Of a DNA stretch of 64,000 bases, positions 355-17,076 are shown one piece after another. Position 1 is the first letter of the stretch. Each line of letters opens with the position of its first letter. The notes under the pieces were generated by a model. That model searched no databases, was not told the DNA's origin, and saw only the letters and a list, made by a program, of their open reading frames with translations. The translations under genes and the position numbers were made by a program. The DNA comes from a virus: positions 1 to 64,000 of the IMG/VR virus record IMGVR_UViG_3300045282_000112; one strand, 5' to 3'.

Positions 355-1440
355 TTACTCGGCGGCTTCGGCTTGCTCGTCCTCCTCCAGCTCAGTCGCG
401 TCATCGACCTCGACAAAGCGGGGGAAGTGATCGTGCAGCTTGAAGTTCTCCGAGAAGCTATCCTCCCCCAAAACGAAGGCGTTGGATGCCCGAATAAGGA
501 ATGCCAACGTAATCATCTGGTTGAAGCGCTTGGCGTAGGCGTTCGACTTCTGCGCCTTCTTCGACGCCTCAAGGTTCTTGAGCAACAGCGCATGCAACTG
601 AGCGACCGGCGCGGACGCCTGCTCCGGGTTGGACAACCCGGTCCAGAACTCGTCCATCCGCTCCTCGCCATACAACTGAAGCTGCCGGTAAGCCACGAAC
701 GTCGCGACCTCCTTGTGCTTCACGAGCGTGACGCCGGGCCGATAACCTTCAGAATTGACCGCCGTTGCGACCGCGATCAGATCAGGGTTACTGTTGATGA
801 AGTCGATGATCTGGACCTTCGTCAACGTCGGCATCTTCAGGCGCTTCAGCCCCTTGCCCGCGATGGCATAAGCCTCGATGTCGTAATCGTGGCCGATCTG
901 CACCGCCTTGCCCATGACCGTAGCGTGGCCGTTGAAGCCTGCCGTGCGCAGGACATCAGAGACCGTGCGGGTCTTGCCGTTGTCGTAATAGGCAAAGAGT
1001 TGCGGGTCGTTGGAGACGCCATCGGCGACGATGTAGTTCGGGAATGAGGCACCGCCAAAAAGGCAGGCCCAAGCCCGATGCTGCAAGTTCATCGCCCGAC
1101 CATCATCATTGACGACAATGGTCTCTCCGGTGCGTGGCCAATCGCCATCCTGCATATAGCGGGCGTAGCGCTTGACCGTAGCGAGGCTCGGCTTGCGATT
1201 ACCGGAGTTGCGGATGAGCAGCAGCTCACAAAGCTGCGGCTCAACGTCATACCAACCGCTCTCAAGGGGCAACTTGTCCTGCGGCTGGGTCTTCGCCCAA
1301 GCTTCAAACTCCTCAACGGCGTTGGAGAAGTCTGATGGGGTAGCCCGGTCCAGATCAAGGGCGAACTGCGGCTTCCAGTCCGTCCTCCACGCTGTGCTCG
1401 AAAGCAGCAACGCGTTAAGCGTCGTCTTCTCTTTGGGCAT
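355..1440 (-). CDS. ParB/Srx-like N-terminal domain protein
   Basis: Start moved to ATG 1440 (AGGAGG RBS). NRKPS..TVKRYARYM..GDW..TGETI....DGRAMNLQHR resembles the phage ParB-like NR...V..YA.DM..G.W...GE.I.....G.L.DGQHR signature. Confidence 0.6.
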   Translation of the reverse strand: MPKEKTTLNALLLSSTAWRTDWKPQFALDLDRATPSDFSNAVEEFEAWAKTQPQDKLPLESGWYDVEPQLCELLLIRNSGNRKPSLATVKRYARYMQDGDWPRTGETIVVNDDGRAMNLQHRAWACLFGGASFPNYIVADGVSNDPQLFAYYDNGKTRTVSDVLRTAGFNGHATVMGKAVQIGHDYDIEAYAIAGKGLKRLKMPTLTKVQIIDFINSNPDLIAVATAVNSEGYRPGVTLVKHKEVATFVAYRQLQLYGEERMDEFWTGLSNPEQASAPVAQLHALLLKNLEASKKAQKSNAYAKRFNQMITLAFLIRASNAFVLGEDSFSENFKLHDHFPRFVEVDDATELEEDEQAEAAE

Positions 1441-4230: not shown

Positions 4231-5031
4231 ATGCCAGCGAGCAAATTGGAAACCGAACTCATCAAGATCACGAAAGTCGCACAAGCCGCAGGTGAGCCCC
4301 GTCCGAAGTATTTTCTCCGGCTGCTGCAGGAGGGCCAGAAAATCGAGACCGACCACTGGGAAGCGACGCTCTCAGCCGAGGCGCAACTCTGGTATAACCA
4401 AGCCGTCCAGCTTTACAGCGCGCACCACAATCCCAACGATATCAAAGAGTTTCCCGACTACGTGCCAACCTCGACGCGTGCCACGCTGGCACCTGAGCCA
4501 GAGCCTGAGACCGAAGACGCCGCGCCGGAAGAGACCGACGAGCCCGAGGATGCAGACGGCGGTGAAGGGCCCGAAGACGACGACGAGCCCGAAGACGACG
4601 GTGACGAAGACGCCGAGGATGAGGGTGTGACGGTCGTCGAGCCTGAGCCAGAGCCCGCCCCGTTGCAGGCTGCCACGACCAAGAAAACAACCCGCAAGCC
4701 TCCTCCCCCGAGGAAGCCGCCGCCCGCCGTCAAGACCCCTGCGAAGCCACGTCCAGCGGGTGGCATCAAGGCCAAGGACGCCAACGGCGAGTTGCTCGTG
4801 GCACCCTCGATCAGTCGTCCGCCGAAGCCCGCATCGCCGGGTGCCTCGACCATGATCAAGCGGCTGTTGCTGAAGGATATCAACATCAGCAACGCCGAGC
4901 TGATCGAGAAGCTGCGCGAGGAGAATATCCCGGTCACGTCGATCTCGGTATCGACGATCAGGTCCGATTTCCGGCACTCGCTGCGCGTGCTGCAGGAAGC
5001 GGGCTACTGCACAGAGATCGCCAATCCCTGA
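4231..5031 (+). CDS. hypothetical protein with acidic and Pro/Lys-rich linker and possible C-terminal HTH
   Basis: ATG 4231 with GGAG upstream; stop overlaps polymerase start. Confidence 0.75.
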   Translation: MPASKLETELIKITKVAQAAGEPRPKYFLRLLQEGQKIETDHWEATLSAEAQLWYNQAVQLYSAHHNPNDIKEFPDYVPTSTRATLAPEPEPETEDAAPEETDEPEDADGGEGPEDDDEPEDDGDEDAEDEGVTVVEPEPEPAPLQAATTKKTTRKPPPPRKPPPAVKTPAKPRPAGGIKAKDANGELLVAPSISRPPKPASPGASTMIKRLLLKDINISNAELIEKLREENIPVTSISVSTIRSDFRHSLRVLQEAGYCTEIANP

Positions 5032-7490
5032 TGGCGTTCCTTGCGCCGCCGAAAAAGCGCAGCAAGCAAGCGAGCCTGACCCCTGAAGAGATGATGGCAG
5101 CGGGCTGCGAAGGATGCCCGCTGCAAGCCGCACCGAAAGCGACACCGAGCGGTGCCGACCCGTGCGACGTTTACATTCTCGGTGAGGCTCCGGGTCAGCG
5201 CGAGGCGGATGTCGGCGAGCCGTTCGTCGGCCCGTCGGGTCGGCTGCTGAAGAGCATGATCCCCGCCGTGTGGAAGCCGACGGTGCGCTTCAACAACGTC
5301 ACGATGAGCTGGCCGCCGAAGGACAACAACGGCAAGCAGATGCCGCCGACGCCGACCGCCATGTGGCACTGTCACGGCTACTTGATCGAGGACATCGAGA
5401 AATCGAAGCCGCGCGCGATCTTCGGCTTCGGTGCCACGGCGCTGCTGGCAATGACCGGGCAGCGTGGCATCAAGGCGCTCGCCGGGCGGCACATGCCGAT
5501 CACGGTCGGCAGCCACGTCTGCTGGTATTTTCCCTTCGTCCACCCCGCCTCGATCCTGCACGCCCGCGAGAAGGACCAAGACGGGCTGAAGGCGGCGCTG
5601 CGGCGGCAGATCGCGGCGTCCTTCGCGCTGGTCGACACGCTGCCTGCGCCACGCGTGGAAGGAACCGACGAGGCGCAGGCAGGCGTGCGGACGCTGCTCG
5701 ACGCCGAGCAGGCTATCGAGTGGCTGCACCGTGCGTCGTCGCTGGATCGAGTAGGCATCGATTACGAGACGACCGGGCTGTCACCTTATGCGACGGGGGC
5801 ACGCCTGCTCAGCGTCGCGTTTGCAACGGCCGAGGAGGCGGTGGCGTTCCCGCTCGACCACCGGGCCAGCCCATGGACCGAAAACGAGCGTAGCGCCATC
5901 TACGGGGCACTGCGCGCGGTTCTGGAAGCGCCGGTCCTCAAGGTGGCGCACAACGCGTCGTTCGAAATGCTCTGGAGCCTGAGCCGCTTCGGCAAGCGGG
6001 CGGCGCGGCACCGGCTGTGGGCCGACACGCTGGCGCAAGCCTTCCTGCTCGACGGGCAGCCGGGCGCGCACAGCCTCGACCACCTCTGCCAAGAGCATTT
6101 CGGGCTGGCGCTGAAGTCGGTGTCGGACCTCGACGTGACCAACCTCGACAACGAGCCGCTGCACGAGGTGCTGATCTACAACGGCATGGACGCCAAATAC
6201 TGCCTGCGGCTGTTTGAACAGCAACGGCAAGCCATCGTCGACGAGGGACTGCAGCGCGTCTATGACCACCACATGGCGCGCGTCGCCGCGCTGGTGCGTG
6301 TGCAACACGCCGGTCTGCCGGTCGACCCGACGGTCAACGCCACGCTCGCCGCAAGCTACCATGCCCAGCTCAAGAGCATCGGCAGGAAGCTGGCGCAGCT
6401 GCCCGAGGTGCAGGCGTTCGAAGCGGACGGCAAGGAGTTCAACCCGGCTGCGCCGAGGCACGTGGCGAAGATACTCGGCATCGACACGTCGAAGCCGTTC
6501 ACGACCAACGTCACGGCGCTCACCGCGCTGCACTCGCATCCTGCCAAGCTGGTGTTGAAGCGGCGCGGCCTTGCCAAGATGCTGTCCACCTACATCGAGC
6601 CATTCGGGCCCGGCGGCGGGCTGGTGCACGGCGGCAAGATACACCCGGTCATCGGCACCACGGGGACGGTGACATGGCGGACCAACAGCCAGAGCCCGAA
6701 CATCCAGAATTTCCCCAAGCGGGCCGAGCGGCACAGGGCGATCCGCAGCCAGATCGTGGCACCGTCGGGCTGCAGCATGCTGTGCGTCGACTACTCCTCG
6801 ATACAGGCGAGGAACGTCGCCATGGAGAGCCGCGACCCGACGCTGGTGCGCTACTTCATCGATCACTACGACATGCATCAGGATTGGTCGGAGCGCATCC
6901 AGCGTCGCATCCCCGGCTGGGCCAAGAAGCGTGACCAGAAGACGCTGCGCAACTGCGCCAAGAATGAACTGGTGTTCCCGTTATTTTTTGGCGCGCAGCC
7001 AGCCTCAGTGGCAGGCTACCTCGGCGTTCAGGTCAAGCATGGATACAAGCTCTACGACGAGTTCTGGCACGAGTTTCCCGAGATCAGGGTATGGCACCAT
7101 AAGCTGCACCGCTTCTATGACCGGCACCACTACGTGACCGGGCTGAGTGGCTTCCGGCGGCATGCGCCGATCACCGACAACGAGCTGGCCGCCGCACCGA
7201 TCCAAGCCGACGAGGTGTTCTTGGTCTGCGAGGCGCTGATCCGGCTGTCGCAATACGAAGACGATGCATTGCAACCCGTCATGATGATCCACGACGATCT
7301 CAGCTTCATCATCCCAAACCAGCGTCTAAACGAATGTGTTGACATTATACTGCATGAGATGCTTAGGTGCGAACACTTGTGGCTGAACGTGCCATTGGCT
7401 GTGGAAGTCAGCATCGGACAAGACTGGTGTAACTTGAGCAAAGTCGGACAATTCGAGAGCATGGGCGACGGCGGATACATTCAAATCTGA
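5031..7490 (+). CDS. family A DNA polymerase with N-terminal uracil-DNA glycosylase (family 4-like) and 3'-5' exonuclease domains
   Basis: UDG: CEGC, GEAPG..E, GEPFVGPSG, HPA. Exonuclease: DYETTG, HNASFE, YNGMD. Polymerase: PNIQNFP, DYSSIQ, R..AK, PIQ, IHDD. Confidence 0.92.
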   Translation: MAFLAPPKKRSKQASLTPEEMMAAGCEGCPLQAAPKATPSGADPCDVYILGEAPGQREADVGEPFVGPSGRLLKSMIPAVWKPTVRFNNVTMSWPPKDNNGKQMPPTPTAMWHCHGYLIEDIEKSKPRAIFGFGATALLAMTGQRGIKALAGRHMPITVGSHVCWYFPFVHPASILHAREKDQDGLKAALRRQIAASFALVDTLPAPRVEGTDEAQAGVRTLLDAEQAIEWLHRASSLDRVGIDYETTGLSPYATGARLLSVAFATAEEAVAFPLDHRASPWTENERSAIYGALRAVLEAPVLKVAHNASFEMLWSLSRFGKRAARHRLWADTLAQAFLLDGQPGAHSLDHLCQEHFGLALKSVSDLDVTNLDNEPLHEVLIYNGMDAKYCLRLFEQQRQAIVDEGLQRVYDHHMARVAALVRVQHAGLPVDPTVNATLAASYHAQLKSIGRKLAQLPEVQAFEADGKEFNPAAPRHVAKILGIDTSKPFTTNVTALTALHSHPAKLVLKRRGLAKMLSTYIEPFGPGGGLVHGGKIHPVIGTTGTVTWRTNSQSPNIQNFPKRAERHRAIRSQIVAPSGCSMLCVDYSSIQARNVAMESRDPTLVRYFIDHYDMHQDWSERIQRRIPGWAKKRDQKTLRNCAKNELVFPLFFGAQPASVAGYLGVQVKHGYKLYDEFWHEFPEIRVWHHKLHRFYDRHHYVTGLSGFRRHAPITDNELAAAPIQADEVFLVCEALIRLSQYEDDALQPVMMIHDDLSFIIPNQRLNECVDIILHEMLRCEHLWLNVPLAVEVSIGQDWCNLSKVGQFESMGDGGYIQI

Positions 7491-10463: not shown

Positions 10464-10946
10464 TCAAGCGTCGTCTGGATCATCTCCCTTCATGCGCGAC
10501 CCGCGCCGGATGTCGTCGAGCCATTCACGCTCGTCGTCGTCGAAGCCACGGCTCCACAGGTTGGATGGCAGACCAGTGCTGACGGTTGAGATCGTGTGCC
10601 CGTGCATCGTGCCGCGCTTGTTGTCCTGCTCCTTTGGGCCAGCTCCCTGCGCCCGCTTGCGAGCGAGGTCACGCTCGCGCTTGCGCCGGTTGAACGTCTC
10701 GGTGTCGAGCGGTGGCGGCAGCGGCTCGGGCGGCTGGGTGTCGCGCAGCACCGTGCCGTCGCCGAGGCATTCCCAGCAGAGGCGCTTGCCCCGCGCGTTG
10801 CACTCGGGGCAAGGAATGTTGCGGTAGCGGTAGTGACCAAAGTTAACGTCGTAGTCGGCGGCGTTGACGCGGCCCGTGCCATAGCAGTTGTTGCACTTCA
10901 GGTCGCCAGTGCCACGACAGATCGGACACTTCCACAACCACGGCAT
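10464..10946 (-). CDS. DnaJ-type zinc-finger protein
   Basis: Four CxxCxGxG-like repeats (CPICRGTG, CNNCYGTG, CPECNARG, CWECLGDG). Confidence 0.7.
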   Translation of the reverse strand: MPWLWKCPICRGTGDLKCNNCYGTGRVNAADYDVNFGHYRYRNIPCPECNARGKRLCWECLGDGTVLRDTQPPEPLPPPLDTETFNRRKRERDLARKRAQGAGPKEQDNKRGTMHGHTISTVSTGLPSNLWSRGFDDDEREWLDDIRRGSRMKGDDPDDA

Positions 10947-11467: not shown

Positions 11468-11923
11468 TCATCCCACGGCTCGGTGGTTCTGAATGGGCCG
11501 AGGGTGGTGGTGCGGGCCGTTGTAGGCGCGCTCGGTGTGCTCGGAACAATAGACCGAGCCAGCTGCCTGCGGCTCGCCGCAGAACACGAAGTCATAGTCA
11601 CCCTGCGGCCACTTGCACTGCCCCGGGCCCAGCTCAAGGATCGAACGGGTGAACGGCACATTGGGCCGCGACGGCGAGGGTGCGGGCGGCGGCTCCATCT
11701 TGAACCACTTGTCCGCGCTGGGCTTCCTTGGCCTTGGCTGGCGCTGCGCCTTCGGCTTCGGCTTCGGCTGCGCTACCGGCGCGGGCTTGACCTTCAGGCG
11801 GTAGAGCTTGCCGATGATGGAGTTCTTGCTGACGCCGAGCAGCTCGGCGATCTCGCTGGCCGAGCGTCCTTCGGCGCGCAGCTGCTTCAACCGCTCGATG
11901 GCGGCATCGTCCCATTCGCTCAT
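11468..11923 (-). CDS. gcrA: GcrA cell-cycle regulator homologue
   Basis: W....IE.LK.L..EG.SAS.IA..LGVS.NS.IGK..RL N-terminus; L.L....C.WP.GD...FCG......YC..H C-terminus. Confidence 0.9.
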   Translation of the reverse strand: MSEWDDAAIERLKQLRAEGRSASEIAELLGVSKNSIIGKLYRLKVKPAPVAQPKPKPKAQRQPRPRKPSADKWFKMEPPPAPSPSRPNVPFTRSILELGPGQCKWPQGDYDFVFCGEPQAAGSVYCSEHTERAYNGPHHHPRPIQNHRAVG

Positions 11924-13777: not shown

Positions 13778-13984
13778 TCACTCCTCGATCAGGTATTCGT
13801 CGTGCTGGTAGGTGCCCTCGACGCGCTCGACGATGCCCTTCTTGACCAGCGAGGAGACCACCCCGCCGATGCTGGCAGCGTCGATGCCAGCGTCGCTGGC
13901 GATATCGTGGCTGTAGATGCCGCCCGGCGCGCGCTCGCGCAGGGCGTCGATCACGGCGCGCTCCAAGGGGGTCAGGAAGATCAC
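13778..13984 (-). CDS. winged-HTH (MarR-like) small protein
   Basis: LTPLERAVIDAL...DIA.DAGI...SIGGVVSSLVKKGIV. Confidence 0.6.
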   Translation of the reverse strand: MIFLTPLERAVIDALRERAPGGIYSHDIASDAGIDAASIGGVVSSLVKKGIVERVEGTYQHDEYLIEE

Positions 13985-13997
13985 TGGTCATTCTCCT

Positions 13998-14249
13998 CTA
14001 GGCAAACACGCGGATCGCGCAGTAGTCGATGCAGACCCACTTCCGGCCGCGCTGCAGGAAGGCCCCGTTCTTGGCGGCCTTGAACATCGCGACGTGGCGG
14101 TGGTCGAAGCGGGTCGCCTGCGTCATGGTGGCGATCACCACGGTGCGGCCCTCGGTGAGGTTGCGGACGATGGCGGCGACCATCACGCGGGCGCGGTGCC
14201 AGCGGAGGAAGCGGCCTTCGATCATCTGGTTGTTGGTCATGGTGGTCAT
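13998..14249 (-). CDS. hypothetical early protein
   Basis: AGGAG RBS directly downstream of promoter 14264-14292. Confidence 0.7.
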   Translation of the reverse strand: MTTMTNNQMIEGRFLRWHRARVMVAAIVRNLTEGRTVVIATMTQATRFDHRHVAMFKAAKNGAFLQRGRKWVCIDYCAIRVFA

Positions 14250-14263
14250 CTCCTGCTCAACTT

Positions 14264-14292
14264 ATATAAGCCCGACCCCGATGACCTTCAAG
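14264..14292 (-). promoter_or_regulatory. early promoter CTTGAA-N17-TTATAT
   Basis: One of four near-identical CCCCTTGAAGGT...GCTTATATAAG units; matches alphaproteobacterial RpoD consensus CTTG-N-CTATAT. Confidence 0.8.
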
Positions 14293-14310
14293 GGGGTCGA
14301 GAGACTTTTC

Positions 14311-14676
14311 CTAGTCGAGCCGCTCCCCGGCGTAGGCGCTGTAGCCAGCCGCGCTGAAGACCTCGGCCATCGCTCGCGCGTGGGCAGTCTTCATCTCGTG
14401 GCTCTGGCCATGCTCGCTGATCCAGAGGTGGACCCCGCCGCCGTAGCCCGTCCGACCGTGACCGGCCTTCTTCAGCCAGTAGCCGAGGCTCCGGTCCTTG
14501 ACGACCACCCAAGCGAAGCCGCACAGACCGTGCAGCAGCCCAACCTGCTTGCTGCCCTGCATGACCGCGTAGTGCGCCATGCCCTTCTCTGCCTCGACCG
14601 CCGCCAGCCGACCGGCCAGCACCGCGCGAGCGTAGAGCAGCTCGTAACCCTTGCTATCAATCTTTGCCATGGTCAT
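14311..14676 (-). CDS. hypothetical early protein (CGFAWV motif)
   Basis: G.CGFAWV...QS.E.K.A.A.A.A.V.......RLD pattern of a common phage early family; GAGGAG RBS. Confidence 0.75.
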   Translation of the reverse strand: MTMAKIDSKGYELLYARAVLAGRLAAVEAEKGMAHYAVMQGSKQVGLLHGLCGFAWVVVKDRSLGYWLKKAGHGRTGYGGGVHLWISEHGQSHEMKTAHARAMAEVFSAAGYSAYAGERLD

Positions 14677-14697
14677 TCTCCTCTTCAGGCACAGCTT

Positions 14698-14726
14698 ATA
14701 TAAGCATGGGCCCGACCACCTTCAAG
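14698..14726 (-). promoter_or_regulatory. early promoter CTTGAA-N17-TTATAT
   Basis: Same repeat unit; -35 box lies in hairpin TGGGCCCGA...TCGGGCCCA (14707-14739). Confidence 0.8.
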
Positions 14727-14739
14727 GGGATCGGGCCCA

Positions 14740-15365
14740 ATGTTTTCAGTCTTTTGGACCGGGGAGCCTTGGCCAAGCCTTAGTGCTTGAGTTTCGCAAT
14801 CTCCCGCGAGAGCGCGCGATAACCGCCGCCCTGTGTCGTTTCGTTGCCCTGAGAGGTCAATGGATGGTGGATGGTCCTCTACTGTCGCCGCACCGCAGCG
14901 ACCGGATCGACGGCCATTGGTCCGATGGCAACAAATCAAGGAGCGCGGGTCACTGCAACAGTGGTCGAAAGCGCCGGTTGATGACCCGGCTCCCACACTA
15001 CGTCCGCGCTTATTCCCGCCGTCGGGCACACGCCCGATACTCGCTTTTTCGCGGTCCTCTTGGGCCCGGTCTTACGCCGTGGGCCCACGCTCCTTGTGAC
15101 AGGCTCATCAAATGATCTCTCGCCAACCCTTCGGCGGGTCGCATTCCCGCTGTCTCGGCAGTCAGTTGCGTCCGTTACACCCGGCTGCTGCCTATGGCGT
15201 CCGACGAGAGATCGTTTGATGAGCCTCCTTTCTGCTGGTTTCTGGGAGGAGCCCTCGACCCTCTGGCATCCCGGTCCACCCACTCTCTGTGCGGCCCACG
15301 TGGGGCTCTAGGCGAGGTGTTAAGTGGTGGCTGGAAGTTGCGCTCTAGGTCTTGGTCTCCTCACC
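14740..15365 (-). ncRNA. putative large (~600 nt) structured non-coding RNA, family unknown
   Basis: No credible ORF; own early promoter (15371-15398); long-range stems 14755-14763/15270-15278, 14937-14949/15084-15096, 15101-15126/15201-15226; many local hairpins; mismatches mostly resolve as G-U on minus strand. Confidence 0.65.
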
Positions 15366-15370
15366 AGCTT

Positions 15371-15398
15371 ATATAAGCTGCACAGGATGACCTTCAAG
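15371..15398 (-). promoter_or_regulatory. early promoter CTTGAA-N16-TTATAT
   Basis: Same repeat unit; points into ORF-free structured region. Confidence 0.75.
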
Positions 15399-15422
15399 GG
15401 GGTGTGCCAACTTTTTTGGGCA

Positions 15423-15445
15423 CATTTACACGCCCTGTGTAAATG
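15423..15445. repeat. palindrome CATTTACAC-N5-GTGTAAATG (second copy 49231-49255)
   Basis: Perfect 9-bp arms; near-identical site upstream of the head protease/scaffold gene. Confidence 0.8.
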
Positions 15446-15521
15446 GTGCTCCCCCCGCGAGGAAGGCAGGGGCGGGCTCAAGCACTCTACAAAGGCGAGC
15501 CCGCCCCCTCCGACGGGGAGA

Positions 15522-15623
15522 ATGACCATCAAACCACCCGACGGGAGGCGCACATGTAAAGAGTGTCAGCGCGTGCTGCAAGCGGGCAGACGGCAGTGCC
15601 GCTGCTGCGGCCACCGCTCCTGA
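15522..15623 (+). CDS. small zinc-ribbon-like protein
   Basis: GGAGAATGACC start context shared with other early genes; MTIKPPDGRRTCKECQRVLQAGRRQCRCCGHRS; 3' end overlaps convergent ORF. Confidence 0.4.
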   Translation: MTIKPPDGRRTCKECQRVLQAGRRQCRCCGHRS

Positions 15624-15772
15624 TACTCTCGGCGTGCACGATCCTGCGGCGTTTCGTATCCGCCTTGGCTCTGGACCTTGCCATCGTAGTGGTCAAAGTT
15701 GCGCGGCAGCTGCTGGTAGGAGGAGTTGTCAGCTAGCAGAAAGCTTGCGCCCAAAACGATCATCGTCAGCAT
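15566..15772 (-). CDS. hypothetical protein with hydrophobic N-terminus
   Basis: 68-aa ORF; weak RBS; overlaps convergent small ORF. Confidence 0.35.
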   Translation of the reverse strand: MLTMIVLGASFLLADNSSYQQLPRNFDHYDGKVQSQGGYETPQDRARREYQERWPQQRHCRLPACSTR

Positions 15773-15856
15773 TTTTTACATTTCCCTCTTGCATTGTCGT
15801 GTCGAGCTTATATCTGTGTTGCAAGGCCGACGCAACGTCGGACCTGATTGGAGAGA

Positions 15857-16969
15857 ATGACCATGAAGCAAGGACGTAACATCATCGAGCTGGCGACCGA
15901 GCTGGAGCGCCAGAAGGAGGCGAAGGTCGACCTCGTCGCGTCGACCAAGGACATGCACGTCACGGCGCGCACCTACGCCAACAGCAACGAGAGCCACGTC
16001 GGCATCGATGTCGGCGACCGGCAGTTTGGGATCAACAACACCGGGCACGCGCAGATCGGCGGGCACACTGGCATCCCGAGCGCCTACTACAAGAAGATGC
16101 AGGCCGAGGCTCCCGACCTCCTCGCCACCAACATCAACCGCTGGTTCGAGAAGTATCCGGCCCCGCGCATGGCCCGCACGCTCGACGGCAAGCTGCGCGC
16201 CTTCCTCTCGCCTGCCTACCGTCCGCTGGAGAACGCCGACCTTGCCGAGGCGGTGCTGCCGGTCCTCATGGACCTCAAGATGATGATCATGAGCTGCGAG
16301 GTCACCGAGACGCGCCTCTACATCAAGGCGGTCGACGAGCGCATCCTGCTCGACATCCCGACCGGCCGCGCACTCGGCGACGGCAGCCACGTGTTCTTCG
16401 ACACGGTGTCACCTGCGGCGATCATCTCCAACTCGGAAGTCGGGCTCGGCAGCCTCTCGGTCGAGACCGGAACGTGGACCAAGATGTGCACCAACCTCGC
16501 GGTCTTCTCCTCCTCGGGCATGAAGCGCCGCCACATCGGTGCCCGCACCGTGTTGGATGACGGCGAGCAGGTGCGCCACCTGCTGACCGACGAGACGAAG
16601 CGCGCCACCGACAAGGCGGTCTGGATGCAGGTGCGCGACGTGGTCGCCGGGGCCTTCAACGAGGAGAAGTTCAAGGCGAACGTCGACAGCATGAAGGGTG
16701 CGGTCGAGCAGAAGATCGAAGGCGACCCGGTCAAGGTGGTCGACCTCTCGGCGAAGCGGCTGGGCCTGACCGAGGCCGAGGGCAAGTCGGTGCTGCGCCA
16801 CCTGATCGCGGGTGGTGACCTGACCCGCTACGGGCTCTTCAACGCGGTGACCCGGTCGGCTCAGGATCACGAGAGCTACGACCGCGCCACCGAGATCGAG
16901 CGGATGGGCGGACAGGTGATCGAGCTGCCGAAGCACGACTGGGAAGTGATCCAGAAGCAGGCCGCCTGA
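15857..16969 (+). CDS. DUF932-family phage protein
   Basis: G..L.ELA.ELERQ..AK.D; RTLDG..RAFLS..Y..L.N; ISNSEVG.GS; C.N; R.H.G; Y.L.NAVT...YDRATE.E..GG. Confidence 0.8.
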   Translation: MTMKQGRNIIELATELERQKEAKVDLVASTKDMHVTARTYANSNESHVGIDVGDRQFGINNTGHAQIGGHTGIPSAYYKKMQAEAPDLLATNINRWFEKYPAPRMARTLDGKLRAFLSPAYRPLENADLAEAVLPVLMDLKMMIMSCEVTETRLYIKAVDERILLDIPTGRALGDGSHVFFDTVSPAAIISNSEVGLGSLSVETGTWTKMCTNLAVFSSSGMKRRHIGARTVLDDGEQVRHLLTDETKRATDKAVWMQVRDVVAGAFNEEKFKANVDSMKGAVEQKIEGDPVKVVDLSAKRLGLTEAEGKSVLRHLIAGGDLTRYGLFNAVTRSAQDHESYDRATEIERMGGQVIELPKHDWEVIQKQAA

Positions 16970-17026: not shown

Positions 17027-17055
17027 CTTGAAGGTTACCAGCGGACAGCTTATAT
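17027..17055 (+). promoter_or_regulatory. early promoter CTTGAA-N17-TTATAT
   Basis: Same repeat unit on plus strand, followed by AAGGAGG RBS of 17077. Confidence 0.8.
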
Positions 17056-17076
17056 AAGCTGTGAAAGGAGGGTGTC

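Follow-up and report, generated by a model that had tools for sequence, protein, structure and literature searches.

A probable new structured RNA encoded among the early genes of an uncultured soil phage

The locus

The window, i.e. the whole 64-kb stretch of DNA that was analysed, belongs to the virus record of an uncultured soil phage with a high-GC genome, the host of which is probably an alphaproteobacterium. The element considered here sits where the leftward and rightward early genes diverge, with genes for PolA and for gp32-like and RecA-like proteins 5-10 kb away. Its neighbours encode a 121-aa protein that falls into no family and has a single homologue (64% identity), and a DUF932/phrog_1362 protein whose two closest relatives are found on ENA contigs (88% identity). 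These neighbouring proteins give no functional clue, a Pfam scan of 28 proteins encoded between 1.5 and 27 kb revealed no reverse transcriptase or transposase domain, and the adjacent gene required by a retron msr/msd, a DRT ncRNA, an omega RNA (IscB/TnpB) or a bridge RNA (RT, TnpB/IscB or IS110 recombinase) is missing. The features that frame the element are as follows.

15425..15443, no strand assigned: AT-rich palindrome, centred ~72 bp upstream of the predicted RNA start, candidate regulator site
15367..15398, minus strand: host-type promoter module, with a -35-like TTGAAG (15397-15392) and a palindromic -10 block, GCTTATATAAGC (15378-15367)
14707..14739, minus strand: GC-rich 14-bp hairpin (inverted repeat I9; mean pair probability 0.97), which holds the -35 box of the next promoter
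14694..14725, minus strand: second copy of the promoter module, which would drive the 121-aa gene
14311..14676, minus strand: 121-aa gene (GC3 0.87), downstream of the element and with its own promoter copy

The promoter motif, TTGAAGG-N12/13-GCTTATATAAGC, is present in three exact copies (about 15367-15397 and 14694-14725 on the minus strand, 17028-17059 on the plus strand), no match to it arises in any of 100 shuffles, and its palindromic -10 part occurs four times exactly in the window against 0.05 expected. These figures bear out the promoter motif of the first-pass annotation, made from the sequence alone, where it was read as an early promoter aimed into the element on the minus strand, and the predicted RNA start would lie near 15362. 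A simple scanner for sigma-70 consensus promoters and terminators made no call at either the motif or the hairpin at 14707-14739, the latter because it has no T run; this hairpin is a candidate for the 3' end or terminator of the RNA. The second promoter module, a full copy 18 nt ahead of the RBS of the next gene, makes the RNA cassette a separate unit. Blocks combining the promoter and the -35 hairpin (D1-D3) recur at 14255-14299, 14689-14733 and 15356-15403, and the cassette has the same layout as its neighbours (promoter, SD-like box, body and hairpin), but its start codon is missing and its body is non-coding. Further upstream, the AT-rich palindrome has two matches in the window against 0.03 expected, the sole other copy lying at 49234-49252, so that it is common to the element and the head-gene region. 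The window also has a hairpin at 15464-15514, outside the proposed RNA.

The stretch is real, and it does not code for protein. Over 14677-15847 the GC content is flat across codon positions (~0.5-0.7 in all three phases across 14700-15800), and GC3 is ~0.9 in both flanking genes (0.86-0.96 in one phase). No ATG, GTG or TTG comes after the SD-like GAGGAG at 15361-15356, in agreement with the original description of ~630 nt devoid of an RBS-supported ORF. Single-base indels at 14984, 14987 and 15030 in a diverged relative (X3, see below) are tolerable to no reading frame. A tmRNA, already discounted at first reading, is not the explanation either, since ARAGORN calls no tRNA or tmRNA in the 64-kb window.

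Predicted fold

On the minus strand, the central 297 nt have an MFE of -143.1 kcal/mol (z = -5.86), a value that none of 200 shuffles attains. Folding of the plus strand is about equally good (-268.6 kcal/mol, z = -3.77), and coding controls span z-scores of -0.41 to -4.29, the most extreme being the L020 gene of a relative; given this range and the mixed z-scores of the positional analogues described below, the fold z-score was rejected as a discriminator. The MFE fold contains several multistem junctions and can be divided into the following parts.

15246..15362, minus strand: 5' domain, a long irregular hairpin of MFE helices, in which the SD-like GAGGAG (15361-15356) pairs with CUCCUC (15251-15246)
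15101..15226, minus strand: Domain A, a 26-bp helix whose cap is a 74-nt junction that carries hairpins at 15192-15157 and 15150-15134
14937..15096, minus strand: Domain B, multibranched in the MFE fold and closed by a 13-bp helix
15083-15078/14997-14992, 15077-15074/15003-15000 and 15069-15067/15006-15004, minus strand: inner helices of Domain B
15037-15022, 14990-14973 and 14963-14951, minus strand: hairpins of Domain B
14840..14935, minus strand: 3' domain C, a long hairpin in the MFE fold with an 8-bp apical stem (14902-14895/14891-14884, probability 0.86)
14747..14832, minus strand: three short 3' hairpins in the MFE fold (14832-14809, 14805-14762 and 14761-14747)

The two long stems proposed at the outset are both part of the MFE fold, with mean pair probabilities of 0.90 for the 26-bp stem (15226-15201/15126-15101; 22 Watson-Crick, three G-U and one C-A pairs on the minus strand) and 0.78 for the 13-bp stem (15096-15084/14949-14937; 12 Watson-Crick and one G-U pairs, same strand). 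The 26-bp stem, detected as a 22-nt inverted repeat of 95% complementarity, is the best separated-arm repeat among 16 in the 64-kb window. The observation that four of the five imperfect pairs in the long stems are G-U on the minus strand is also correct; the plus strand has A-C mismatches at these four positions, a pattern that favours the minus strand and agrees with the promoter direction. Three elements of the first-pass fold are unsupported. Its closing stem (15278-15270/14763-14755), meant to join the two ends, is perfectly complementary over 9 bp, yet it is outside the MFE fold with a pair probability of 0.0, costs 5.7 kcal/mol when forced (-287.3 versus -293.0 kcal/mol) and is the kind of 9-mer match of which we estimate about one by chance within 626 nt. 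Among the six local hairpins, those at 14884-14902, 14951-14963, 14973-14990 and 15022-15037 are retained (mean probability 0.75-0.96), and those at 14913-14929 (0.0) and 14852-14880 (0.12) are not.

Natural variation

Two sets of related sequences inform on how the element varies. In a near-identical strain (X2), one difference is seen in 549 cassette bases, when the flanks have 29 in 760 (Fisher P = 1.9e-6) and a segment consisting mostly of the DUF932 gene has six in 389 (P = 0.023). In this strain the downstream gene begins with a stretch in which 16 of 157 bases are different, and the cassette is near unchanged: there are no differences over 14694-14963, the 5' domain is identical as far as it is covered (to 15319), and an A>G change at 15087 turns a U-G pair into C-G.

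The second set is a diverged relative (X3), which was read from difference tables and from loose ends of 30 letters on three short contigs (records 11, 12 and 14), assumed to represent one genome. Its aligned part is limited to 14947-15215, and the alignable core is put at ~290 nt (15226-14937); its 5' domain (loose end behind 15215) and 3' domain C (loose end before 14947) are unlike those of the window. Among the 51 MFE pairs readable on both sides, a count that excludes six changed pairs, differences within ~30 nt of piece ends being unlisted, 39 are unchanged, five have changed on both sides and still pair, two have changed on one side and still pair, four are broken and one is affected by an indel. 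When the same 28 substitutions were placed at random 20,000 times, the probability of at least five double changes was 5e-5 and that of at most four broken pairs 0.005. The compensatory double changes (15089/14944, 15087/14946, 15074/15003, 15069/15004 and 15067/15006) are all in Domain B, where the one-sided changes at 15082 and 14997 keep pairing through G-U or G-C. Domain A has changed little over 15147-15215 (three substitutions and two insertions), and four changes fall on the 5' arm of its 26-bp helix (15216, 15218, 15219 and 15220), the partners of which are in the part without listed differences. In X3, substitutions cluster in loops (14978-14984 and 15029-15030). As for strand, the changes at 15082 and 14997 in X3 and at 15087 in X2 keep or improve pairing on the minus strand only, and one of the four broken pairs (14986/14977) would still pair on the plus strand.

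Covariation, which the first-pass annotation proposed to test among homologues, is present in one diverged relative, and these compensatory changes support the view that the two long stems and an inner helix have been kept. The idea of a single ~600-nt unit has fared less well, because only ~290 nt (15226-14937) can be aligned in the relative and the stem that would join the ends is unsupported.

Distribution and known families

Searches for known RNAs were uniformly negative for the element. None of 4227 Rfam families reached its gathering score in the window by cmscan, and at E values of up to 10 the region 14500-15600 gave four unrelated sub-threshold matches, with neither ROOL nor GOLLD among them. 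The Rfam 15 models for phi29 pRNA (RF00044), 6S RNA, RNase P RNA and tmRNA, and those for group I/II introns and self-cleaving ribozymes, had no match. In 20 related loci, Rfam matches were restricted to mmgR/suhB and hammerhead, elsewhere in the loci. Literature searches on GOLLD/ROOL, DUF932 and large structured phage ncRNAs turned up no description of the RNA, supplements aside.

Searches by sequence were no more productive. No match was found by blastn of 14600-15500 against 50,697 phage records, the phage's own genome returned the element itself plus promoter repeats, and nhmmer and blastn of 14677-15847 against eight IMG/VR loci of PolA or DUF932 relatives gave nothing. The 80 metagenome loci with DUF932 relatives (47-65% identity) yielded no nhmmer match at E<=1 and one 22-nt blastn match (E = 0.12), none of 55 upstream regions matched the window in an all-against-all blastn, and exact/IUPAC pattern scans of viral contigs and genome contigs gave zero hits. 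A single-sequence covariance model of 297 positions and 90 pairs (R1) had no match in 151 genomes of the order of a Hyphomicrobiales MAG. Its best scores elsewhere were treated as noise: 16.5 bits in 88 related loci (L065, fold z only -1.96), 17.6 bits in ten genome loci and three MAGs (with many non-canonical pairs) and, with filters off, 8.2 bits in the three closest loci.

Several other candidates were dismissed. Four loci found via the promoter motif are chance matches (GC 38-42%) and bear no similarity to the element. In about 11 of 55 relatives, the DUF932 gene is preceded by a non-coding stretch of 500-700 nt. These positional analogues share no sequence, and their fold z-scores are mixed (-3.13 for L019, -0.85 for L020). 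In L091, an inverted repeat of 25 bp directly precedes the RBS of a gene on the plus strand; it corresponds to the window hairpin at 15464-15514 and not to the RNA. With these searches, the element is probably lineage-restricted, being seen in near-identical strains only, besides the X3 relative.

What the element might be

The view of the first-pass annotation that this may be a new large phage ncRNA holds in part, on the strength of its non-coding character, the lack of an Rfam family, the compensatory changes, the low variability and the minus-strand G-U pairs; the element is probably a structured phage RNA that is new and restricted to one lineage, with ~290 nt as its core. The explanation that we favour, evenly poised as a whole between being right and being wrong, is that of a stand-alone gene for an RNA, located in the phage's early region. 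The first leftward host-type promoter at 15367-15398 would make a minus-strand RNA of ~660 nt ending at or near the GC-rich hairpin at 14707-14739, the functional part of which would be the central ~290 nt (15226-14937) with its two adjacent domains, i.e. the 26-bp duplex capped by a three-way junction and the 13-bp duplex closing a multibranched domain. We propose that the folded RNA itself would be the product. Stable and made early, it would act in trans by binding protein, as a scaffold or a decoy, and the near-perfect 26-bp duplex would be the likeliest docking or cleavage site of a dsRNA-binding protein such as RNase III. Nothing, however, favours trans over cis action specifically.

A cis-acting leader is the most serious rival, though an unlikely one. 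The element would then open a long transcript that starts at the first leftward promoter and runs into the leftward early operon, serving either RNase III processing at the 26-bp duplex or polymerase read-through of the promoter-overlapping hairpins, in the manner of put RNAs. There are precedents: RNase III cuts T7 early mRNAs and the lambda N leader, and phage HK022 has its put RNAs. The location directly downstream of the first leftward promoter, the strong hairpin ahead of each following gene, the duplex of RNase III substrate size and the absence of a T run in the 14707-14739 hairpin, which makes read-through plausible, are all compatible with this. However, the next gene carries its own full promoter copy and has no need of a leader, the conserved multi-domain core is far larger than known put or RNase III sites, and it would be odd for a leader co-evolving with its gene that the X2 cassette is unchanged when the start of the downstream gene has changed so much. 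An origin-of-replication transcript, forming an R-loop or a primer for the family-A DNA polymerase of the phage, is quite improbable. Transcript-primed origins are known (RNA II in ColE1, and promoter transcripts at the T7 primary origin), the element lies where early genes diverge and within reach of the PolA, gp32-like and RecA-like genes, ColE1 RNA II resembles it in length and in being rich in structure, and the cumulative GC skew has its minimum at ~15-18 kb. That minimum, however, is very weak (-118, comparable to the noise), neither iterons nor repeated boxes are found in 14200-16000 apart from the promoter modules, and there is no AT-rich unwinding stretch by the 3' end of the RNA, the AT-richer part (15640-15850) being upstream.

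It is very improbable that the element is a decayed protein cassette or spacer, with stems that are fortuitous or left over and a low variability that results from a recent recombinational sweep of the module, even if the SD-like remnant shared with the neighbours but followed by no start codon fits such decay, phage genomes are mosaic, the identical X2 block between diverged flanks looks as if it had arisen by recombination at the repeated promoter modules, and z-scores this large are also seen in a coding control. What speaks against it is that five double and two wobble-preserving changes in 51 readable pairs are unexpected without selection on pairing (P = 5e-5), and that substitutions in X3 are concentrated in loops. 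An element acting at the level of DNA, with inverted repeats serving as dsDNA protein sites or as folded ssDNA (e.g. a priming or recombination site), would account for co-variation too, if a dimeric protein or a DNA hairpin were selected, and for a plus strand that folds about as well as the minus strand. We nevertheless find it hardly credible, considering that the arms are 74-134 nt apart and nested in other conserved helices, an arrangement usual for RNA but not for operators, that imperfect pairs read G-U on the strand that would be transcribed and A-C on its complement, and that a promoter is aimed into the element.

A bolder version of the stand-alone RNA gene can also be contemplated, albeit with more doubt than belief. 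The element might represent a new RNA class unrelated to GOLLD, ROOL or any Rfam family, made by host RNA polymerase in the first minutes of infection from its own promoter-to-hairpin cassette, operating in trans as an RNA machine (a decoy or scaffold for a host defence or RNA-processing factor, or an RNA-only assembly) and spreading as a mobile module among soil alphaproteobacterial phages. Large structured phage RNAs are known from few examples, the functions of which are still open, and this one stands out by its high-GC soil phage and by its clean early promoter-to-hairpin cassette, which is not beside tRNAs. Its narrow distribution is a weakness. Its ~290-nt core is short enough for probing, cryo-EM and pull-downs, natural variation already marks which helices matter, and a trans-acting early RNA could reveal an RNA-based strategy for host takeover or anti-defence.

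Comparison with known systems

The obvious comparison is with GOLLD (RF01998), many members of which exceed 800 nt when the present unit is at most ~660 nt, and with ROOL (RF03087), both being large multi-domain structured RNAs of phages and prophages. ROOL has a mean length of 581 nt (PMC5737381, PMC12286853), and both are RNAs of unknown function that assemble into cages and often adjoin tRNA genes or islands in phages and prophages (PMC12286853). The element differs from the two in having no covariance-model match, no tRNA gene in 64 kb, a location in a promoter-bounded early cassette, a restriction to one soil phage lineage and a conserved part of ~290 nt. The likeness that can be shown to GOLLD and ROOL is limited to size and phage origin.

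Two other RNAs come to mind because of what they do. The phi29 pRNA, a non-coding RNA of ~170 nt in phi29-like podoviruses of Firmicutes, is made from an early phage promoter and is itself the product; the element has no match to its Rfam model, and the only candidate tie to packaging is the palindrome shared with the head-gene region. ColE1 RNA II is a highly structured replication pre-primer of ~550 nt, made from a host promoter and used by a family-A polymerase, and the phage also encodes PolA, but no antisense RNA I-like partner or promoter is seen on the other strand of the element.

The last two likenesses concern signals in early transcripts. Like putL and putR of HK022, the element would be a structured RNA right after an early promoter, its structure setting in a few nt at most from where the 15367-15398 promoter is predicted to start transcription, ahead of early genes punctuated by hairpins. 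However, put RNAs are ~70-nt cis antiterminators with two stem-loops that act on the transcribing polymerase, whereas here the core of ~290 nt comprises two multibranched domains and the downstream gene has its own promoter. The T7 R0.3-R1.3, lambda N leader and sib sites of RNase III offer another parallel, in the form of a long near-perfect duplex and a predicted host-type promoter. RNase III substrates are duplexes of roughly two helical turns, a length that the 26-bp helix, with one mismatch and three G-U, attains. In contrast to the T7 and lambda sites, which are single hairpins between or before coding regions, this duplex caps a conserved junction, has a second conserved domain next to it and is part of a cassette that contains no gene.

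A structured, non-coding cassette

The leftward region is organised in cassettes. In each, a promoter with its -35 box inside a GC-rich hairpin is followed by an SD-like box and a body, and the next hairpin comes last. The candidate RNA fills one of these.

15398-14707, minus strand: RNA cassette
15226-15201/15126-15101, minus strand: 26-bp stem (domain A)
15096-15084/14949-14937, minus strand: 13-bp stem (domain B)

This cassette has the same frame as its neighbours, but its body is non-coding yet structurally constrained. GC content by codon position is flat over ~14700-15800 (0.5-0.7 in all phases), whereas it reaches 0.86-0.96 in one phase of the flanking genes, and 14677-15847 therefore represents ~1.17 kb of non-coding DNA, which upholds the first-pass annotation in finding no RBS-supported ORF in the RNA stretch. 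The SD-like GAGGAG has no start codon after it and is paired with CUCCUC in the fold. Owing to single-base indels in X3, a diverged relative from a soil metagenome, there is no conserved reading frame in the core.

The 297-nt core folds on its own at -143.1 kcal/mol (z = -5.86), which none of 200 shuffles equalled, and of 16 repeats in the window the best with separated arms is an inverted one of 22 nt (95%). Full-length z-scores (-4.27 for the minus strand, -3.77 for the plus strand and -3.48 in a separate run) do not settle the matter, since -4.29 was obtained for a coding control in a relative. Both long stems proposed earlier are present in the MFE fold. The 9-bp stem thought to close the structure has a pair probability of 0.0 and costs +5.7 kcal/mol to force, and pair probabilities back four of the six local hairpins claimed but do not support the other two.

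Variation in a strain and in a diverged relative

Contigs of four soil runs were aligned on 14300-16300. In X2, a strain of the phage, cassette pieces 14694-14963 and 15041-15319 have zero and one difference, respectively. The flanking pieces are as follows.

14528-14684: 16/157 differences + 5 gaps
15526-15739: 7/214 differences
15785-15986: 2/202 differences
15988-16174: 4/187 differences

The cassette thus differs at 1/549 positions vs 29/760 in the flanks (P = 1.9e-6; P = 0.023 when compared with the segment made up largely of DUF932 gene). The pattern points either to constraint or to recent exchange of the module. The lone change, 15087 A>G, lies in the 13-bp stem, where on the minus strand it replaces the sole U-G pair (with 14946) by C-G. 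Piece 14528-14684 covers the opening third of the 121-aa gene (14311-14676, minus strand) plus its RBS, so that the mosaic pattern changes abruptly at the promoter module.

X3 aligns with parts of the core only, through three short contigs that each run on into unlike sequence.

Record 11, 14947-15066: 12 differences, 5 gaps
Record 12, 15037-15134: 12 differences, 4 gaps
Record 14, 15147-15215: 3 differences, 2 gaps

Listed differences were mapped onto MFE pairs, as were the 30-letter loose ends where these could be aligned, the three contigs being assumed to come from one genome. On this basis, both partners can be read for 51 pairs. Of these, 39 kept their bases, 5 changed doubly with compensation, 2 still pair after a one-sided change, 4 are broken and 1 is hit by an indel. 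When the same 28 substitutions are placed at random, at least five doubles occur at P = 5e-5. Two compensated pairs lie in the 13-bp stem (15089/14944, C-G to U-A; 15087/14946, U-G to A-U), in which deletion of 14942 leaves one bulge, and three in inner helices (15074/15003, U-A to C-G; 15069/15004, C-G to U-A; 15067/15006, G-C to C-G), where the alignment displays one insertion and one deletion whose letters equal three substitutions. One-sided changes preserve pairing at 15082 (U-G) and 14997 (G-U to G-C). The broken pairs are 15083/14992, 15146/15138, 15177/15171 and 14986/14977; the hairpins of the last two, which also carry indels, can refold. Substitutions cluster in loops 14978-14984 and 15029-15030. 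The 26-bp stem has four changes on its 5' arm (15216, 15218, 15219 and 15220), whose partners fall in a zone without listed differences; since record 12 has five unlisted differences, unseen compensation is possible.

As for the strand, four pairs of the two long stems in the window are G-U on the minus strand and would be A-C mismatches on the plus strand; one C-A mismatch points the other way, being G-U on the plus strand. This agrees with the earlier claim that the G-U pattern matches promoter direction. Variant positions 15082, 14997 and, in X2, 15087 favour the minus strand, along which the promoter points, whereas 14986 favours the plus strand.

Promoter modules and an upstream palindrome

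The promoter said to point into the RNA proves to be a repeated motif, TTGAAGG-N12/13-GCTTATATAAGC, with exactly three copies in the window and none in 100 shuffles.

15367-15397, minus strand: exact copy, pointing into the RNA
14694-14725, minus strand: exact copy
17028-17059, plus strand: exact copy
14261-14270: fourth copy of the -10 palindrome
15797-15813: partial copy, ahead of the DUF932 gene
15425-15443 and 49234-49252: AT-rich palindrome TTTACAC-N5-GTGTAAA

The motif, which we take to be similar to the rhizobial sigma-70 consensus CTTGAC-N17-CTATAT, was not called by an E. coli-type promoter scanner. Both boxes are palindromic (CCTT-G-AAGG and GCTTAT|ATAAGC, in 14249-14299, 14683-14733, 15356-15403 and 17028-17059), and the -35 box sits within a GC-rich hairpin in the minus-strand copies. 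Two further roles are possible for these modules: as terminators, and as sites where recombination exchanges cassettes.

Just two copies of the AT-rich palindrome are present in 64 kb, where 0.03 would be expected: one ~72 bp ahead of the predicted RNA start, the other in the head-gene region. As a candidate operator, it could bind a dimeric regulator that connects the two places. Late genes may have a regulator in common with the RNA unit or with the divergent small ORF.

An unannotated 33-aa ORF (15522-15623, plus strand), with four Cys in CxxC...CxCC spacing and a weak UPF0547 zinc-ribbon match (E = 0.0036), starts with an RBS/start module, GGAGAATGACCAT, common to the DUF932 and 121-aa genes. 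Upstream, a 51-nt GC-rich hairpin (15464-15514) ends right at its RBS. In L091 (3500-3642 and 2345-2415), a distant relative (DUF932 47% identity), an inverted repeat of 25 bp (92%), capped by 93 nt, lies directly ahead of the RBS of a gene on the plus strand, in the position corresponding to this hairpin; L091 also has an Rfam mmgR/suhB match (45.6 bits).

The phage and its host

The virus record is 84,383 bp long, and its first 64 kb are 63% GC. Two sets of small genes diverge at the RNA region, leftward from 14676 to ~10464 and rightward from 15848 to ~18949, with gp32-like and RecA-like genes further left.

5031-7490: PolA gene, further left
10464-10946, minus strand: protein with DnaJ-type CXXCXGXG zinc-finger domain (E = 3.6e-7), leftward early operon
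11468-11923, minus strand: GcrA-like cell-cycle regulator (PF07750, E = 3.4e-23), leftward early operon
13778-13984, minus strand: small winged-helix protein, TrmB/MarR-like (E = 7e-6), leftward early operon

Cumulative GC skew over the whole genome has a weak minimum at about 15-18 kb, near the divergence point. The host is probably an alphaproteobacterium, because of the GcrA-like gene, by which the phage could manipulate the host cell cycle, and because the nearest genome-borne DUF932 relatives (55% and 54% identity) are on Hyphomicrobiales MAG contigs. The phage is present in soil-metagenome DNA runs, and long near-identical pieces also turn up in at least two other studies (runs X2 and X3).

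Nature of the RNA

We read the cassette as an RNA gene, ~660 nt long, whose conserved core (~290 nt) comprises 15226-15101 and 15096-14937, because it shares the cassette frame, has an SD-like box without a start codon, and has a body that is non-coding but structurally constrained. In the account that we favour, which has about an even chance of being right, its product would be a stable RNA that is made early and acts in trans, and a dsRNA-binding protein or RNase III would recognise the 26-bp duplex; the label 'early' is not secure, since the upstream palindrome recurs only in the head-gene region. The main competitor, a leader that acts in cis in processing or antitermination, is less likely. 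An origin transcript, a decayed cassette and a DNA-level element are all improbable, the last slightly more so than the other two.

Comparison with known RNAs

Searching the whole window with cmscan against Rfam 15, the check proposed by the first-pass annotation, gave no family at gathering, leaving the RNA unassigned, and no tRNA or tmRNA is found in the window. With E up to 10, 14500-15600 has only four sub-threshold matches, of which the best (mir-1207, 23.9 bits vs a cut-off of 90) is at 15464-15514, outside the RNA. A metagenome contig with a DUF932 relative (L059) has a type II hammerhead ribozyme match at 471-538, minus strand (42.8 bits vs gathering 37). No homologue was found at sequence or model level in the collections searched (phage records, related loci, genomes); the closest relatives by protein search reach 88% for the DUF932 protein and 64% for the 121-aa neighbour.

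The RNA falls outside ROOL and GOLLD, as it does outside other Rfam families, and works like no family that we can name. What it has in common with these two (PMC12286853, PMC5737381) is only size class, phage origin and a function that is not known. Judging by sequence, it would be one of the orphan structured phage RNAs, seen in one soil phage lineage only.
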